Positions 1-37,203 of a stretch of 64,000 bases of DNA are shown piece after piece. Numbering within the stretch: the stretch's first letter is position 1; every line of letters starts with the position of its first letter. The notes below the pieces were generated by a model. That model was not told where the DNA came from. It was given only the letters and a program-made list of their open reading frames with translations, and did no database searches. The position numbers were made by a program, and so were the translations under genes. This DNA is from Candidatus Omnitrophota bacterium (GTDB lineage Bacteria; Omnitrophota; Gorgyraeia; Zapsychrales; Fredricksoniimonadaceae): positions 77,160-141,159 of the forward strand of contig JADFZK010000001.1 of assembly GCA_015232565.1 (NCBI GenBank), written 5' to 3'.

Positions 1-2
1 CA

Positions 3-542
3 TTTGGCTGTCTGGATCATGCCACAGTAGCGCGGGTTATTGGCGTGCTCGAGCAGGCTCGTTTGGGAAAGAAAAGGATCTTTTTTATTGGTAACGGCGG
101 GAGCGCGTCGACCTGCGGGCATTTTGTTAATGACCTGCATGCGGGCTCACTGCGTCATGGCGGCGGTGGTTTTCGCGCACAGGATCTGACCTGTAATGTC
201 GCATCATTGACGGCGCTGGCCAATGATGTTGGCTACGACAAGGTTTTCTCCTGCCAGCTCGAGGGGGTTTTAGACGCCGGAGATGTAGTGGTCGCTATAT
301 CGGCTAGCGGTAATTCGCCTAATTTGGTTGGGGCGGTTGAATATGCCAGGGCGCAGGGAGCTGTTACCGTAGGGCTTTTGGGGTTCGACGGCGGGTCGTT
401 GGCAAAACTATGCCATCATTGCGTGATCGTTAGTACAGAAAAAGGTGAGTACGGCCCGGTAGAAGATGTTCATATGGTTTTGGATCATTTGATATCATCT
501 TATTTTTGTTTGAGCCGGAATTCCGAGAGAAAGTGTTCATAG
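3..542 (+). CDS. SIS-domain sugar-phosphate isomerase, sedoheptulose-7-phosphate isomerase (GmhA)/DiaA-like. The 5' end is truncated by the window edge, and the reading frame is open back to position 3.
   Basis: The translation reads KKRIFFIGNGGSASTCGHFVNDL ... VVAISASGNSPNLVGAVEYARAQGAVTVGLLG, the typical single SIS fold of GmhA-type isomerases. There is no CBS domain, so it is not KpsF/GutQ type. There is no in-frame stop between position 3 and the GTG at 45. Confidence 0.6.
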   Translation, partial: FGCLDHATVARVIGVLEQARLGKKRIFFIGNGGSASTCGHFVNDLHAGSLRHGGGGFRAQDLTCNVASLTALANDVGYDKVFSCQLEGVLDAGDVVVAISASGNSPNLVGAVEYARAQGAVTVGLLGFDGGSLAKLCHHCVIVSTEKGEYGPVEDVHMVLDHLISSYFCLSRNSERKCS

Positions 543-598
543 TGTGACATTCATCTTTTTTGGGTGGATTCTTTTGCCACTGGGAATGGTCAGCAGGT

Positions 599-1351
599 AT
601 GCGTAAAAAGGATTTATTAAGATATTTGGAGCTTGCTAAGACCGCCGCTACGCAGGCCGGCATTTTTTTGTGCTCACACCAGTCTGCCTCGCAGGTTATT
701 GATAAGAATATGGCACACGACCTGAAATTGCGAGCGGATAAGGATTCGGAGACCTTGTTGATCAGGTTGTTACAGAATGGTGCCGATTTTCCAATATTAT
801 CAGAAGAATGTGGGGCTATAGGCGGGTTGACCGACGGTCTGCGCTGGATCGTGGACCCGTTGGACGGGACGATCAATTATTCCAGGAAGGTCCCGCTGTC
901 TTGCGTATCTGTTGGCTTGCGTGATGGGGCCCGGTCGGTTCTGGGCGTTATCTACGATTTTAATCGGAAAGAGTTGTTTTCCGGGATCGTCGGTCAGGGC
1001 GCCTGGCTTAATGGTAATAAAATCTCGGTCAGCCGGGTGCCCAGGAAACGCGACGCTATCCTGGCTACAGGGTTTCCGGGTAAGACGGATCTTTCGGGAA
1101 AGAGCATTGAAAGTTTTGCGCGCAATGTCCGCGTCTACAAGAAGCCGCGCTTGATCGGATCGGCGGCTCTTTCCATGGCTTATGTCGCCGCCGGGCGTTT
1201 TGACGCTTATGACGAGAAAGACATTATGCTTTGGGATATTGCGGCCGGGGCGGCCATTGTTGAAGCGGCCGGCGGTAAGGTAAAGATTAAACAGGCCGGA
1301 CATGAGTATAGTTATCATGTCCAGGCGTGCAATGGCATATTCAGGATGTGA
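599..1351 (+). CDS. Inositol-monophosphatase-family phosphatase (IMPase/SuhB/CysQ-like sugar- or nucleotide-phosphate phosphatase).
   Basis: It has the motifs WIVDPLDGTINY and LWDIAAGAAIVEAAGG, the IMPase family metal-binding and C-terminal signatures. The ATG at 599 (MRKKDLL) is chosen over the upstream alternative-start ORF. Confidence 0.7.
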   Translation: MRKKDLLRYLELAKTAATQAGIFLCSHQSASQVIDKNMAHDLKLRADKDSETLLIRLLQNGADFPILSEECGAIGGLTDGLRWIVDPLDGTINYSRKVPLSCVSVGLRDGARSVLGVIYDFNRKELFSGIVGQGAWLNGNKISVSRVPRKRDAILATGFPGKTDLSGKSIESFARNVRVYKKPRLIGSAALSMAYVAAGRFDAYDEKDIMLWDIAAGAAIVEAAGGKVKIKQAGHEYSYHVQACNGIFRM

Positions 1352-34005: not shown

Positions 34006-35024
34006 TGGCGGTTAAAGTAAAGAAGGCTTTAATAACCGGGATCACCGGACAGGACGGTTCGTATCTTACCGAATTACTGTTAAAGAAAGGCTATGAAGTC
34101 CACGGCATAATCCGCCGGGCCAGTTCGTTTAACACTCAGCGTATCGATCATTTGTATGCTGACCCTCATGAAAAAGGGGTGCGTTTGCGGTTGCATTATG
34201 GCGATCTTAATGACGCTTCTTCACTGGCGCAGGTCATTAAACAGGTCGCACCGGATGAAGTTTATAATCTGGCCGCCCAAAGCCATGTGCGGGTAAGTTT
34301 TGACGTGCCGGAATATACCGGCGAGATCACCGGCATGGGGACTACGCGCATGCTGGAGGCTATCCGGGAAATGGGCGGCAAAACCCGGTTTTATCAGGCC
34401 TCGAGTTCGGAGATGTACGGTAAGGTTCAGGAAACGCCCCAGACCGAGCTTACGCCGTTTTACCCGCGCAGTCCTTACGGCGCGGCCAAGGTGTACGCCT
34501 ATTGGATGACGGTTAATTACCGTGAGTCATATAATATTTTTGCCTGTAACGGGATTTTGTTCAATCATGAATCCCCCCGCCGCGGTGAAACTTTTGTAAC
34601 GCGCAAGATCACCATGGCGCTGGCGCGTATAAAGCACGGGTTGCAGGAAAAGTTGTACCTGGGGAATATCGATTCCAAGCGTGACTGGGGCTTTGCCGGC
34701 GATTATGTGGAAGCCATGTGGTTGATGTTACAGCAGGACCAGCCTGAGGATTATGTAATAGCGACGGGCGAGACTTATTCGGTCAAGGAATTCCTTAAGA
34801 TCGCCTTCGATCATGCCGGCCTGGATTGGAAGAAATTCGTGGCTATTGATAAACGCTATTTCCGGCCAGCCGAGGTCGACCTGCTTTTGGGTGATGCGGG
34901 CAAGGCGCGCAAACATCTGGGTTGGAAGCCTAAGGTGAAGTTTGCCGACCTGGTGCGGATGATGGTGGATTCCGATATGGCTTTGGTGGAAAAAGAAGTT
35001 TATGGCCTGAAGGGTAAACGATGA
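34002..35024 (+). CDS. gmd: GDP-mannose 4,6-dehydratase.
   Basis: It has [46 protein letters not shown], a near-canonical Gmd N-terminus, and [19 protein letters not shown]. Confidence 0.9.
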
Positions 35025-35959
35025 GCTTTTGGGCCAGCCGTAAAGTGGTGGTTACCGGCGGCGCCGGGTTCCTGGGCCAGGCAGTGGTGCGGGAATTGCG
35101 CGGCCGCGGTTGTGCTAATGTTTTTATTCCGCGATCGAGTTGTTATGACCTGCGCGAGAAAGAAAGCATTCTCCGGTTGCTTAATGACGCGCGGCCGGAT
35201 ATTATTTTGCATCTGGCGGCGGTGGTGGGAGGTATTGGCGCGAACCGTGCTAATCCGGGCAAGTTCTTTTACGATAATTTAATGATGGGTGTTCAGCTAA
35301 TGGAGCAGGCCCGCTTGTCGGGCGTGCAGAAATTCGTGGCGATCGGCACTATTTGCGCGTATCCCAAGTTCACTCCGGTGCCTTTTAAGGAAGACGACCT
35401 TTGGAATGGTTATCCGGAAGAAACCAATGCGCCGTACGGCCTGGCCAAGAAGATGCTTTTGGTCCAGTCGCAGTCTTATCGTCAGCAATATGGTTTTAAT
35501 TCAATTTATCTTCTGCCGGTAAATCTTTATGGTCCGGGAGATAATTTCGCGCCGGATTCTTCGCATGTTATTCCGGCTCTTATAAAAAAGTGCGTGGATG
35601 CCGCCCGCTCCGGGGCGGCGGCAATAGATGTTTGGGGTACCGGTCAAGCCACCCGTGAGTTCTTGTATGTGGCTGATGCCGCCCGTGGCATTGTGCTGGC
35701 GGCCGAGAGGTATAACGGGGCCCTGCCGGTCAACCTGGGTGCGGATTTTGAGATCTCGATCAAAGAGCTTACCGGTCTTATTGTGGAATTGTCCGGGTTT
35801 AAAGGTGCTGTCCGCTGGGATCCGGCCCAACCCGACGGCCAGCCGCGCCGCCGCCTGGATGTGTCCCGGGCAAAGAAAGAATTTGGCTTTTCCGCAGAGA
35901 TGTCCTTCCGGGAAGGGCTTAAACTAACCATCGACTGGTACAAGGCCCAGCCTTACTGA
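35021..35959 (+). CDS. fcl: GDP-L-fucose synthase (GDP-4-keto-6-deoxymannose 3,5-epimerase/4-reductase).
   Basis: It has [57 protein letters not shown] and [14 protein letters not shown], the characteristic Fcl/WcaG blocks. Confidence 0.85.
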
Positions 35960-37203
35960 TGATAGCTATCACTTTTCTTGATCGGGCGATCTTTGTTCTA
36001 CTTTGTCTTTTGGTTTTCTTTTTGCCTGCCACCAATGCTTTTGTGGAAGTGGCGTCTGCTTTGGCTATACTGGCTTTCCTCATAAAACAGTTTCTGCTGG
36101 GCCCCGCGGCTTTAAAACGCCTGCCGGGCAAGATGGTGCTTATTCCGGCTTTGTTGTTTTTTGTCTGGTCGGGGCTTTCCATTGTCTGGAGCCAGTTCCC
36201 GTTGTTAAGCCTGAAGGGTTTTCTCGGCAAATCTTTGCAGGCCGCTTTTTTGTTCATTATTAGTTATGAAACTTTGTCTTCCGGCAAGCGCTACTGGATC
36301 CTGATCGCGGTTTTTATGGTCTCGGCGGGCATTGTATCTTTGGATGGCTTATGGCAGGCTTATTCGGGGTTCGACATCTTTGTGCGCGCTCCGTTCTCGG
36401 ACGGGCGGGTAATGGCGTCTTTCCGGCACCCTAATGATTTTGGGGCTTACCTTATCCTGGCGATCCTGCCGGTCATAGTGCTTACCATAACAGCCGGAGT
36501 GCGTTCTTTTACCGATTACAGTCTTAAGAACGCCATGTTGTTCTTTGGCGGTTTTCTCTTTGTGGGCGTAGCTTCAACAGCTTTGGGATTAACTTATTCC
36601 CGGGGTGCCTGGTTCGGCATGGTAGTGGCGGCGATCATTTTGATCGCCCATAACCGCCGTTTGTGGCCGGCGGTGCTGGCTTTCACGTCTTTGTTCATCC
36701 TTATTTTTCAGCCTTTATTGCTTAAGATCCGGGATGTTTCTTTTGTGGCGGATACGGTCGGCGGGCAGTCAAGTTTCGGGGTTTTTAACGGTAATGGTCG
36801 GCTGGTTTTCTGGCGCGACGCACTGAAGGTCATCGCCGATAACCCCATCTTCGGCACCGGGTTGAATTCCTACACTATGGTAATTAAGAAGTATGTGCCT
36901 ATGTGGGCTATTTATCCGCATAACTGCTATTTGCAAATGGGCGCCGAGTTGGGGCTGGTGGGGTTGGCTTTGTTCCTTTGGTTCATGATTGCGCTAATGA
37001 TCAAGATGTCGTCGGGGATCGGGCGTTTGCCCAAAGAGCCCGAGCGCTGGTTATTGACGGCTTTCTTTGCCGGCTGGTGCGGTTTTCTGGTCCATAGCGG
37101 GCTGGATACCTCGTTATATTCGTCCCAGTTGACCGCTATTTTCTGGGTCGTTACCGGAGCGATGGCAGCTTTCGGTAAGCAGATATCATGTCGTCAGGTA
37201 TGA
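35959..37203 (+). CDS. O-antigen ligase / Wzy-type polymerase family membrane protein.
   Basis: It has about 11 TM helices. The C-terminal region YPHNCYLQMGAELGLVGLALFLWF matches the Wzy_C motif. Confidence 0.65.
   Translation: MIAITFLDRAIFVLLCLLVFFLPATNAFVEVASALAILAFLIKQFLLGPAALKRLPGKMVLIPALLFFVWSGLSIVWSQFPLLSLKGFLGKSLQAAFLFIISYETLSSGKRYWILIAVFMVSAGIVSLDGLWQAYSGFDIFVRAPFSDGRVMASFRHPNDFGAYLILAILPVIVLTITAGVRSFTDYSLKNAMLFFGGFLFVGVASTALGLTYSRGAWFGMVVAAIILIAHNRRLWPAVLAFTSLFILIFQPLLLKIRDVSFVADTVGGQSSFGVFNGNGRLVFWRDALKVIADNPIFGTGLNSYTMVIKKYVPMWAIYPHNCYLQMGAELGLVGLALFLWFMIALMIKMSSGIGRLPKEPERWLLTAFFAGWCGFLVHSGLDTSLYSSQLTAIFWVVTGAMAAFGKQISCRQV

Follow-up and report, generated by a model that had tools for sequence, protein, structure and literature searches.

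In the Gtr, Arn, and CsbB/YfhO systems, polyprenyl-phosphate sugar synthases supply membrane glycosyltransferases (GTs) of the GT-C type. The Wzy_C domain is common to WaaL ligases, some Wzy polymerases, and PglL-type O-oligosaccharyltransferases (O-OTases), and the variable part of glycan loci is commonly lower in guanine-plus-cytosine (GC) content. According to a 2025 review (PMC12247030), a proposal for miharamycin/amipurimycin biosynthesis is that a keto sugar, following the action of an oxidoreductase, receives a hydroxyacetyl group from a split-gene transketolase; all 13 predicted enzymes of this kind are from Streptomycetes. Here we describe a gene array, g1 to g35 (Table 1), that occupies the first 37 kb of a 64,000-nucleotide stretch of DNA (the whole stretch analyzed, hereafter the window) and that we consider likely, with a probability of about 70%, to be a mosaic surface-glycan locus of the O-antigen or exopolysaccharide type of a Candidatus Omnitrophica bacterium. 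This reading builds on directly observed features, namely, the gene families, the source organism, the recurrence of a 3′ core and of a six-gene cassette in other genomes, and the altered acceptor-site motif of a split transketolase encoded by that cassette. The cassette is the part of the locus most worth following up.

Open reading frames (ORFs) were called as the longest per frame; overlaps such as -67 and -62 are probably start-codon artifacts. Genes of the window are nearly all on the + strand. Between positions 45 and 37203 there are 35 ORFs, 33 on the + strand and two (30126-30677 and 30670-31659) on the - strand, with a coding density of 0.986. Nineteen of the 34 junctions overlap, 10 of them by 4 bp. 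Every ORF was scanned against Pfam and NCBIfam with the family cut-offs applied and rescanned permissively at E ≤ 5. A Pfam match compatible with glycan synthesis was obtained for 31 of the 35; the remaining four are polytopic membrane proteins.

These results bear out most of the initial annotation, which had described about 35 consecutive genes, all but two on the + strand and with frequent 4-bp overlaps, as a glycan-biosynthesis locus with an unusually rich tailoring set: the hidden Markov model (HMM) searches assigned the ORFs to glycan functions and not to unrelated ones. RmlA, RmlB, Gmd, and the WbaP-like transferase all score above their NCBIfam cut-offs, and the annotated second, short RmlA-like gene (g17) has a Pfam NTP_transferase match. 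Pfam recognizes four GT2, one GT4, and one GT26 enzymes, as well as the split transketolase, sulfotransferase-like protein, formyltransferase, NodB-family deacetylase, acetyltransferase, and methyltransferase that had been listed. The annotated fcl gene corresponds to the Fcl-like g34, but its NF047922 score lies under the cut-off. Of short-chain dehydrogenases/reductases (SDRs) the locus has six, i.e., RmlB, Gmd, the Fcl-like protein, and three others, one fewer than the four additional SDRs that had been counted.

The locus is a mosaic, with a higher-GC conserved core, a lower-GC, radical-SAM-rich variable part, and the embedded cassette; a conserved end beside an exchangeable body of lower GC is usual in glycan loci. 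GC content is 0.482 for g1-g30 and 0.535 for g31-g50, a 5-point step at ~31.7 kb that leaves g31-g35 with a GC content like that of the housekeeping genes. The core comprises the genes for WecG (g31), the WbaP-type transferase (g32), Gmd, the Fcl-like protein, and the Wzy_C protein (g35). Three comparison loci from two other Omnitrophota-type assemblies (L012/L013 and L014) all have a g28 homologue directly before WecG and then a Bac_transf transferase, with an unannotated 432-residue gene between the latter two in L012 and L013. Wzy_C comes next after Bac_transf in L013 and L014; L012 ends before that point. The genes upstream of the core in these loci are wholly different and include, in L014, a radical-SAM (S-adenosylmethionine) gene and a B12-radical-SAM gene. 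The closest g28 relative (60% identity) has unrelated neighboring genes. The core is best described as typical of the phylum.

The right-hand boundary of the locus is real and sharp: beyond it lie pgk, tpi, secG, and further housekeeping genes, and the 301-bp gap before pgk holds a perfect TTGACA-16-TATAAT, the sole such site in 19000-38500. At the other end, the reading frame of g1 stays open as far as base 3, so that coordinate 1 is the edge of the window and not of the locus, which is at least 37 kb long and may extend upstream. The proteins g28 and g12 are each 100% identical to products of a metagenome-assembled genome ("MAG: Candidatus Omnitrophica bacterium"), HQL20_00480 and HQL20_00400, respectively. 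The two tags are on one 141,577-bp NCBI contig and imply that ~68 further genes lie upstream of the window on the source contig.

In the assembly route that we propose, the repeat unit would be begun on undecaprenyl phosphate by the WbaP-type g32 and extended by the GT26 g31, the GT2 g14, and the GT4 g19, with deoxythymidine diphosphate (dTDP)-6-deoxyhexose (from g4, g16, g17, and g18) and guanosine diphosphate (GDP)-fucose (from g33 and g34) as donors. The Wzx/Wzy pathway requires an initiating transferase, and g32 matches both TIGR03025 and Bac_transf. For the GDP-L-fucose pathway, Gmd scores 559.5 against a cut-off of 415 and the Fcl-like g34 281.7 against 500. In the dTDP-L-rhamnose pathway RmlA (g4) and RmlB (g16) are above the cut-off; the rmlD matches of g18 and others are far under it, and no dTDP_sugar_isom match, i.e., no RmlC, was found in the window. 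Since RmlC is missing, the dTDP product would not be L-rhamnose, a 6-deoxy-D-hexose or a derivative of it being more likely.

The finished unit would be flipped by a protein encoded outside the window and then polymerized or ligated by two Wzy_C-type proteins, the variable g15 and the conserved g35. The earlier description of two Wzy_C proteins holds for g35, which alone passes the Wzy_C model, a model without power to separate polymerase from ligase; the likeness of g15 to g35 is confined to the R..W..PHN..G..G hallmark stretch (BLASTP E 0.001). A side feature of g15 is a 93-bp tandem repeat (14284-14559; 3.0 copies, 94% identity) that encodes 31-residue Ala/Val/Ser/Lys-rich repeats in the large loop and whose copy number could differ among strains.

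Export genes were sought in vain within the window. None of the 35 proteins gave a Polysacc_synt or MurJ-type match to a Wzx (MOP-family) flippase even at E ≤ 5, the left end of the locus being cut, and the window has no Wzz-domain match to a Wzz/polysaccharide copolymerase (PCP) chain-length regulator. A Wzm/Wzt or KpsM/KpsT exporter is likewise missing from the locus, the window's only ABC genes being those of an Opp-type peptide importer outside it (39975-45198). No small flippase with four transmembrane (TM) segments (GtrA, ArnE/F, GtcA) was found, and the coding density leaves no room for an unassigned small ORF. The initial annotation was therefore right that no Wzx, Wzz, or ABC exporter is evident in the window, but the truncation at the left edge weakens its missing-flippase argument, and a flippase could lie upstream.

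It had also been supposed that all 35 genes form one co-transcribed super-operon for a single heavily decorated polymer. The near-uniform gene orientation, dense packing, and ten 4-bp overlaps speak for this, as does the fact that promoter-like and terminator-like sites within the locus are not more frequent than expected from shuffled sequence. We nevertheless consider it doubtful. The array is interrupted by intergenic gaps of 119, 206, and 138 bp, by the divergently oriented pair g29/g30 on the - strand, and by a terminator-like hairpin at 21190-21208 in the g21-g22 gap, which together suggest several transcription units rather than one. The GC step at ~31.7 kb, the existence of the cassette as a stand-alone unit in other phyla (see below), and the quite different genes upstream of the core in its close relatives also argue against a single super-operon. 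Because the cassette is self-contained and occurs alone elsewhere, the genes of the window may serve more than one glycoconjugate.

For four of the membrane proteins, g12, g15, g25, and g28, neither Pfam nor NCBIfam gave a match, even at E ≤ 5. AlphaFold2 gave confident models for g28 (pLDDT 93.6, built on 39 homologues) and g12 (pLDDT 90.1), and the top Foldseek matches of both in the PDB are GT-C enzymes at probability 1.0. For g28, ranks 1-29 are all either GT-C enzymes (AglB, STT3, PglB, Pmt4, ALG3, AftB, ArnT, DPY19, EmbB) or the glycosylphosphatidylinositol (GPI) transamidase PIG-U; for g12, which has an extra C-terminal soluble domain, the top matches are ALG12, ArnT, STT3, and ALG9. 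Both proteins are thus predicted to have the GT-C fold, and the two models support a decoration step outside the membrane. A third protein, g20, aligns with the g12-family profile over its first 160 residues (hhalign probability 86%, E 4.7e-6), including a W-DE motif after TM1, and is a probable GT-C glycosyltransferase. In g25 the sole GT-C hint is a CWDSLEY motif after TM1. GT-C enzymes are therefore as abundant as had been annotated, although invisible to the HMM libraries.

These are new or very rare families. An exhaustive HMMER search of 1.8 billion proteins yielded 41 representatives of the g12 family, and a word-indexed search of 5.8 billion clusters returned g12 itself alone. For g28 there are 43 relatives, and all eight that bear organism names (its own copy and seven others) are from Omnitrophota, the only phylum in which the family has so far been found. 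The possibility that g12 or g28 is the missing Wzx flippase was discarded, the predicted fold being GT-C and not that of a transporter. The two are not recognizable paralogues of each other (hhalign probability only 5%), nor did g25 give any signal against the g12 profile.

Under the scheme proposed here, three or four GT-C enzymes (g12, g20, g28, and perhaps g25) would decorate the polymer on the outer face of the inner membrane, and their donors would be polyprenyl-phosphate sugars made by the ArnC/AglJ-like GT2 proteins g30, g26, and perhaps g8, according to the logic of the Gtr, Arn, and CsbB/YfhO systems. The protein g30 has two TM segments at its C-terminal end (residues 250-300), and its best NCBIfam matches, all under the cut-off, are AglJ (E 6.5e-30; 104.5 bits versus 325), PpgS, a Dol-P-hexose transferase, and ArnC. 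AglJ, ArnC, and PpgS are matched more weakly by g26, again under the cut-offs; a g26 homologue in L012 is 77% identical.

The same membrane proteins could be read differently, with the locus or its core serving general protein O-glycosylation or en-bloc transfer, g35 as a PglL-like O-OTase, and the GT-C proteins as oligosaccharyltransferases (OSTs). In favor of this, g35 passes only the generic Pfam Wzy_C model, whose domain is shared with PglL-type enzymes, and the top Foldseek matches of g28 are the OSTs AglB, STT3, and PglB. However, g28 has 504 residues with almost no soluble domain and lacks the C-terminal domain that carries the WWDxG of N-OSTs; its TM-scores to OSTs are only 0.38-0.48, similar to those to ArnT, ALG3, and AftB; and no target glycoprotein or pilin gene is present in the window. 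We regard this alternative as unlikely, somewhat more so than the super-operon.

The cassette consists of the genes for the N- and C-terminal subunits of the split transketolase (TK-N and TK-C), a GT2 (g8), a DUF4915 protein (g9), a sulfotransferase-like protein (g10), and an SDR (g11). A metagenome scan with the transketolase N-subunit retrieved 80 loci, onto which all 35 window proteins were mapped. The same gene order recurs in five of them (L016, L033, L035, L067, and L070); it is permuted in L049 and partial on shorter contigs. Four further loci (L095, L096, L097, and L098) have this order as well. The cassette is intact in several phyla. Its g8 homologues are 40-57% identical, and g11 is the most constant neighbor of the transketolase, adjoining its genes in 23 of 41 longer metagenome loci. 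The insertion of the radical-SAM gene g7 between TK-C and GT2 is peculiar to this locus, other copies of the cassette being without it; as a conserved member g7 was rejected after a scan of genome contigs gave relatives of 28-38% identity without shared neighbors.

What follows the cassette differs from locus to locus. In L016, L033, and L095 a polytopic membrane protein comes next, which in L095 has 939 residues and no Pfam match; in L096 a methyltransferase precedes the membrane protein, which has 614 residues. In L098, where B12 radical-SAM genes flank the cassette, the next gene encodes a YfhO-family GT-C protein, and in L097 nothing related lies downstream. None of these membrane proteins proved to be a g12 or g28 homologue by HMM and BLAST; among them, only L016_632, L096_614, and L096_607 are related to each other. 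L096 and L098 both belong to GCA_023247445.1, one genome with two full cassette copies on different contigs, and the L096 copy is preceded by a PMT_2-like protein and a GT2. In variant cassettes, one or two SAM methyltransferases take the place of DUF4915 and the sulfotransferase-like gene; the transketolase, an SDR, a polytopic membrane protein, and a GT2 that has TM helices (and is fused to the SDR in L030) are retained. We interpret the transketolase, SDR, GT2, and membrane transferase as a constant core to which exchangeable tailoring genes are joined.

The most conserved member is g10, with 3998 relatives at E ≤ 1e-10, the best 120 of which are 67-77% identical across phyla. Altogether, relatives amount to at least ~4000 protein clusters over Omnitrophota, Cyanobacteria, Chloroflexota, Acidobacteriota, and others, Eremiobacterota being also among the named ones. 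Its conservation points to an unusually strong constraint or to recent horizontal spread. Among the best 120 matches, 44% of positions in the g10 family are ≥95% conserved; the cassette neighbors are only 38-64% conserved. The cyanobacterial relatives are from Leptothermofonsia sichuanensis E412 and Spirulina sp. CCY15215. The former, a cultured organism, encodes the same sulfotransferase-fold protein, and an intact cassette was read on a metagenome contig with an identical protein. For g9 there was no sequence match in the PDB, and a literature search on DUF4915 and TIGR03032 returned nothing relevant.

The closest structures to the transketolase subunits are 6yak for g5 (E 5e-59) and 6yaj for g6 (E 1e-52). 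Compared to 6yak, g5 keeps the GH, SKGH, and HPE histidines and the Asp/Asn that bind thiamine diphosphate (ThDP), with GDG changed to SDA. In g6 the canonical acceptor-site motif THxGxxxGEDGxSHQ, whose key residues are H461, D469, and H473 in the Escherichia coli enzyme, is replaced by GVGAGVDYGTAGKSHW; of these, H461, which binds the substrate phosphate, and D469, which binds the acceptor 2-hydroxyl, are lost. Of 67 relatives in the clade, 66 have G-x-G-x-G-x-[ED]-Y-G-x-x-G-x-[ST]-H instead of T-H-x-G-x3-G-E-D-G-x-S-H-Q and lack the His and the Glu-Asp pair; the canonical motif is intact in three controls, namely, human transketolase, L085, and the split transketolase of Carboxydothermus. 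Donor chemistry thus looks intact and the acceptor pocket changed, from which we infer that g5/g6 may branch a keto-sugar by two carbons. In keeping with the branching proposal, the transketolase is constantly paired with an SDR and, here, lies directly after rmlA with rmlB nearby. Literature searches on transketolase in O-antigen clusters found nothing relevant, the mentions concerning central metabolism or an uncharacterized Actinoplanes cluster.

In the corresponding part of the scheme, g5-g11 would supply one special sugar. The SDR g11 (or RmlB g16) would make a nucleoside diphosphate (NDP)-keto-sugar, to which the split transketolase would add a hydroxyacetyl C2 branch; the donor is perhaps hydroxypyruvate, which g3 and g2 could together give, to judge from adjacency. 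The branched sugar would be tailored by the radical-SAM enzyme g7, by g9, and by g10 with its sulfotransferase fold, and delivered by g8 and g12. We offer only tentatively the broader view that the cassette, which mostly has a polytopic membrane protein encoded behind it, is a widespread, horizontally mobile module whose neo-functionalized transketolase gives a keto-sugar a hydroxyacetyl C-branch before this sugar is tailored and joined to the cell surface.

Alternatively, the split transketolase might be ordinary and boost sedoheptulose-7-phosphate or octulose-8-phosphate for the GmhA-like g1, the module making an NDP-heptose or NDP-octose. A second, more distant split-transketolase clade (41-45% identity; L079, L081, L083, L084, L090, and L094) lends this some color, adjoining SIS-domain and SDR genes in all six loci, and lincosamide octose synthesis follows a comparable logic (transferase, SIS isomerase, kinase, phosphatase, nucleotidyltransferase). 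Yet the His and Asp with which the acceptor site of canonical transketolases handles sugar phosphates are missing from the clade of g6, g1 accompanies the near-clade cassette in no other locus, and the window has no equivalents of the anomeric kinase, GmhB, or HddC. The L084 neighbors, too, are an APH-like kinase, a methyltransferase, and a zinc alcohol dehydrogenase (Zn-ADH) rather than GmhB, HddA, or HddC. Heptose or octose synthesis is accordingly improbable. As a separate observation, the block of the distant clade has two SDRs (one 4,6-dehydratase-like) and a SIS isomerase before TK-N and TK-C, and its transketolases are also without the canonical acceptor motif. In L084 a DegT aminotransferase lies upstream of the block, and a 213-residue protein precedes the three genes just named downstream.

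Returning to the surface polymer, non-sugar groups would be contributed by the acetyltransferase g13, the methyltransferase g29, the B12 radical-SAM C-methylase g24, and the deacetylase/formyltransferase pair g22/g23. The initial annotation had listed three radical-SAM enzymes, two of them B12 dependent. All three (g7, g21, and g24) have CxxxCxxC, and g7 passes both Pfam B12-binding and Radical_SAM; g24 passes Radical_SAM, but its B12-binding domain falls just short (29.5 bits versus a cut-off of 32.1). The best PDB match of g7 is the sugar diol dehydratase AprD4 (6fd2; E 4e-15). Those of g24 are the cobalamin-dependent C-methylases TokK (E 2.5e-30) and CysS (E 4e-25), with an NCBIfam KedN5 match under the cut-off, and those of g21 are the SPASM/twitch enzymes SkfB, PqqE, and the sugar decarboxylase BlsE.

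The best PDB matches of g23 are the sugar N-formyltransferases 6v2t, PseJ, and VioF, and its sequence, NIH...RG...LDSG, keeps the N-x-H...D catalytic pattern. No pyridoxal phosphate (PLP)-dependent aminotransferase (DegT_DnrJ_EryC1) match was found in the window, for which reason the adjacent deacetylase g22 is suggested as the source of the amine that g23 would formylate. In g10, the Sulfotransfer_3 match spans residues 132-245 only. Sulfotransferases dependent on 3′-phosphoadenosine 5′-phosphosulfate (PAPS) have a 5′-phosphosulfate loop with a basic residue (PK/RSGTT type). The loop of the g10 family, AMYENGGNTTHRF, is invariant (YENGGNTTHRF) and has no Lys/Arg before GxTT; an RNPW 3′-phosphate-type motif is present. 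The PAPS supply genes cysC/N/D are absent from the window, and a role of g2 as a CysQ partner of the sulfotransferase is not supported, g2 being nearer SuhB. Sulfation by the g10 family is possible; for the polymer, sulfation and N-formylation are only suggested.

Several points weigh against the scheme as a whole. Neither a flippase, whether Wzx or GtrA-like, nor a chain-length regulator is visible in the window, whose left end cuts the locus off. The candidate polyprenyl-phosphate sugar synthases g30, g26, and g8 are all under the NCBIfam cut-offs for such enzymes. In L097 and in a cyanobacterium (L095) the cassette occurs by itself, so it may serve a separate glycoconjugate and not this polymer, and g2 and g3 accompany the transketolase in this window only. 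Branching by split transketolases, finally, has been proposed only and never shown (PMC12247030).

An assembly chimera of several contigs, which the origin of the array from a metagenome-assembled genome and the 5-point GC difference of g1-g30 from g31-g50 might suggest, is highly improbable given that GC skew is strongly positive and continuous over the whole window, no junction lacks coding sequence, the spacing of the tags HQL20_00400 and HQL20_00480 (16 genes) is precisely that of Table 1, the order g28-family gene, WecG, initiating transferase, Wzy_C is repeated in independent assemblies, and a lower GC in the variable part is usual for glycan loci.

Table 1. Genes of the locus and the promoter-like site that follows it, with the matches on which each assignment is based
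Gene	Product or feature	Position	Strand	Match or other evidence
g1	SIS-domain, GmhA-like sugar-phosphate isomerase, N terminus cut by window edge	1..542	+	Pfam SIS, SIS_2; TIGR00441 gmhA 96.7 bits, under 209 cut-off
g2	Inositol-monophosphatase-family phosphatase	560..1351	+	Pfam Inositol_P, E 8e-50; nearer SuhB than CysQ, both under NCBIfam cut-off
g3	D-2-hydroxyacid dehydrogenase, phosphoglycerate-dehydrogenase (PGDH)-like	1327..2271	+	Pfam 2-Hacid_dh, 2-Hacid_dh_C; TIGR01327 PGDH 234.9 bits, under 454 cut-off
g4	RmlA, glucose-1-phosphate thymidylyltransferase	2275..3159	+	TIGR01207 433.8 bits > 360.65
g5	Split transketolase N-terminal subunit, first gene of cassette	3156..3980	+	Pfam Transketolase_N
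g6	Split transketolase C-terminal subunit, altered acceptor-site motif	3973..4908	+	Pfam Transket_pyr, Transketolase_C
g7	Radical-SAM enzyme with B12-binding domain	4905..6350	+	Pfam B12-binding, Radical_SAM; CPFQCTYC
g8	Short soluble GT2 of cassette	6361..7104	+	Pfam Glycos_transf_2; weak NCBIfam matches including ArnC
g9	DUF4915/TIGR03032 protein of cassette	7101..8291	+	Pfam DUF4915, E 1.6e-52
g10	Sulfotransferase-fold protein of cassette	8296..9222	+	Pfam Sulfotransfer_3 38.2 bits > 27
g11	Extended SDR of cassette	9219..10169	+	Pfam Epimerase
g12	Predicted GT-C-fold membrane glycosyltransferase, C-terminal soluble domain	10162..11802	+	AlphaFold2 and Foldseek
g13	Hexapeptide-repeat acetyltransferase	11736..12386	+	Pfam Hexapep; NCBIfam WbbJ/WcaF/NeuD-like, under cut-off
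g14	GT2 glycosyltransferase	12401..13321	+	Pfam Glycos_transf_2
g15	Polytopic Wzy/WaaL-like protein	13337..15172	+	BLASTP versus g35, E 0.001
g16	RmlB, dTDP-glucose 4,6-dehydratase	15169..16203	+	TIGR01181 419.8 bits > 365.1
g17	Short RmlA-like sugar-1-phosphate nucleotidyltransferase	16200..16922	+	Pfam NTP_transferase; 41% identity to g4; under rmlA cut-offs
g18	Extended SDR, possibly 4-ketoreductase	16922..17800	+	Pfam Epimerase, RmlD_sub_bind; passes no NCBIfam family
g19	GT4 glycosyltransferase	17739..18896	+	Pfam Glycos_transf_1, Glyco_trans_1_4
g20	Probable GT-C membrane glycosyltransferase	18883..20040	+	PMT_2 E 6e-4, under cut-off; hhalign versus g12 family
g21	Radical-SAM/SPASM enzyme	20049..21158	+	Pfam Radical_SAM, SPASM; CCLKCVMC
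g22	NodB-family polysaccharide deacetylase	21278..22222	+	Pfam Polysacc_deac_1, E 2.4e-18
g23	Formyltransferase-like protein	22219..23013	+	Pfam Formyl_trans_N 31.3 bits > 26.1
g24	Radical-SAM enzyme, B12-binding-like domain, probably C-methyltransferase	23056..25068	+	Pfam Radical_SAM
g25	Polytopic membrane protein	25275..26711	+	~10 TM segments, ~150-residue loop
g26	GT2 resembling polyprenyl-phosphate sugar synthases	26743..27504	+	Pfam GT2
g27	Extended SDR	27501..28538	+	Pfam Epimerase, GDP_Man_Dehyd; passes no NCBIfam family
g28	Predicted GT-C-fold membrane glycosyltransferase, 504 residues	28567..30081	+	AlphaFold2 and Foldseek
g29	SAM-dependent methyltransferase	30126..30677	-	Pfam Methyltransf_23, _11, _12
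g30	GT2, polyprenyl-phosphate sugar synthase type	30670..31659	-	Pfam GT2; two C-terminal TM helices
g31	WecG/TagA-family GT26	31798..32547	+	Pfam Glyco_tran_WecG E 1e-57; TIGR00696 147 bits > 69
g32	WbaP-type polyprenyl-phosphate hexose-1-phosphate transferase	32587..34005	+	TIGR03025 411.8 bits > 295.55; Pfam Bac_transf, CoA_binding_3
g33	Gmd, GDP-mannose 4,6-dehydratase	34002..35024	+	TIGR01472 559.5 bits > 415
g34	GDP-L-fucose-synthase-like SDR	35021..35959	+	NF047922 281.7 bits, under 500 cut-off
g35	Membrane protein with Wzy_C domain (ligase, polymerase, or O-OTase), ends the locus	35959..37203	+	Pfam Wzy_C 77.3 bits > 31.7
	Sigma-70-type consensus upstream of pgk	37235..37262	+	12/12 match

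Three features of the window beyond the locus are recorded here. The SecG ORF (39550-39975; 141 residues, start codon TTG) has its SecG domain in residues 6-71 only, which leaves its C-terminal half unexplained by that domain. At 49282-52503, an acyl-CoA dehydrogenase gene is followed by those for EtfB and for an EtfA with an N-terminal 2x[4Fe-4S] ferredoxin domain, an arrangement that suggests electron-bifurcating or anaerobic fatty-acid metabolism. A 2212-residue ORF at 56665-63303 has histidine-kinase ATPase-type regions (~residues 900-1140) as its sole family matches; large, poorly annotated ORFs have been reported for Omnitrophota (PMC10066038).

Omnitrophota are uncultured, often ultra-small, and possibly host dependent, and their surface glycans are therefore likely to shape cell-cell contact. 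The locus gives a first outline of how one such glycan is built, and one of its new GT-C families (that of g28) goes with the core conserved in the phylum. Its kind is ordinary, but it carries the altered split-transketolase cassette, which is common in environmental genomes and has no described function. Should the sugar product of the cassette be shown, bacterial glycan chemistry would gain a new step that forms carbon-carbon bonds, and both DUF4915/TIGR03032 and a very conserved family with the sulfotransferase fold would be assigned a role. Hydroxyacetyl branching, if it is indeed what the cassette does, has hitherto been proposed, never demonstrated, and only for Streptomyces nucleoside antibiotics. 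The cultured L. sichuanensis E412 makes the question testable, provided that the cassette is present in its genome.

Compared with Wzy-dependent O-antigen and exopolysaccharide clusters, i.e., the WbaP-initiated Salmonella O-antigen and colanic acid loci, the locus shares the WbaP-type transferase, the rmlA, rmlB, gmd, and fcl-like genes, the GT2, GT4, and GT26 enzymes, the Wzy_C-type membrane proteins, and a lower-GC variable region beside a conserved end. It differs in having no visible Wzx, Wzz/PCP, or outer-membrane export gene and no rmlC, and in the presence of a split transketolase, of three radical-SAM enzymes, and of GT-C enzymes, at least three in number, whose families Pfam does not model. 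With GtrA/B/C, ArnC/ArnD/ArnE-F/ArnT, and CsbB/GtcA/YfhO it has in common GT-C-fold transferases, which here occur together with GT2s that resemble polyprenyl-phosphate sugar synthases. Its NodB-type deacetylase and its formyltransferase have counterparts in the Arn pathway, and a YfhO protein directly follows one cassette copy in another genome, recalling CsbB/GtcA/YfhO. Unlike these systems, the locus has no small GtrA- or ArnEF-type flippase, its GT2s are under the family cut-offs, and its GT-C proteins belong to new sequence families. The C-methylases TokK, CysS, and KedN5 and the dehydratase AprD4 resemble g24 and g7 in their B12-like N-terminal domain and CxxxCxxC; those enzymes act in antibiotic pathways, whereas g7 and g24 lie in a surface-glycan locus and score far under the family cut-offs.

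For the split transketolase, the closest solved relative is the Carboxydothermus hydrogenoformans enzyme (6yaj/6yak), which is likewise encoded by two genes and agrees in its ThDP and donor-side residues but keeps the canonical THAGLTVGEDGASHQ where the g6 clade has GVGAGVDYGTAGKSHW-type sequences. The Streptomyces miharamycin/amipurimycin transketolases (PMC12247030), likened by gene arrangement and description, are also encoded by a gene pair beside an oxidoreductase able to make a keto-sugar acceptor, and hydroxypyruvate-type donors are chemically possible for them as well. Those clusters, however, make nucleoside antibiotics, while the present genes, accompanied by those for GT2, DUF4915, and sulfotransferase-like proteins, belong to surface-glycan loci of Omnitrophota, cyanobacteria, and other phyla. 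YerE, which branches CDP (cytidine diphosphate)-4-keto-3,6-dideoxyglucose on the way to the yersiniose of O-antigens, provides a chemical parallel in an O-antigen locus, with a ThDP-bound carbanion that would attack the keto group of an NDP-keto-sugar as proposed here. YerE belongs to the decarboxylase (acetolactate-synthase-like) superfamily and uses pyruvate, whereas g5/g6 are of the transketolase superfamily and encoded by two genes.

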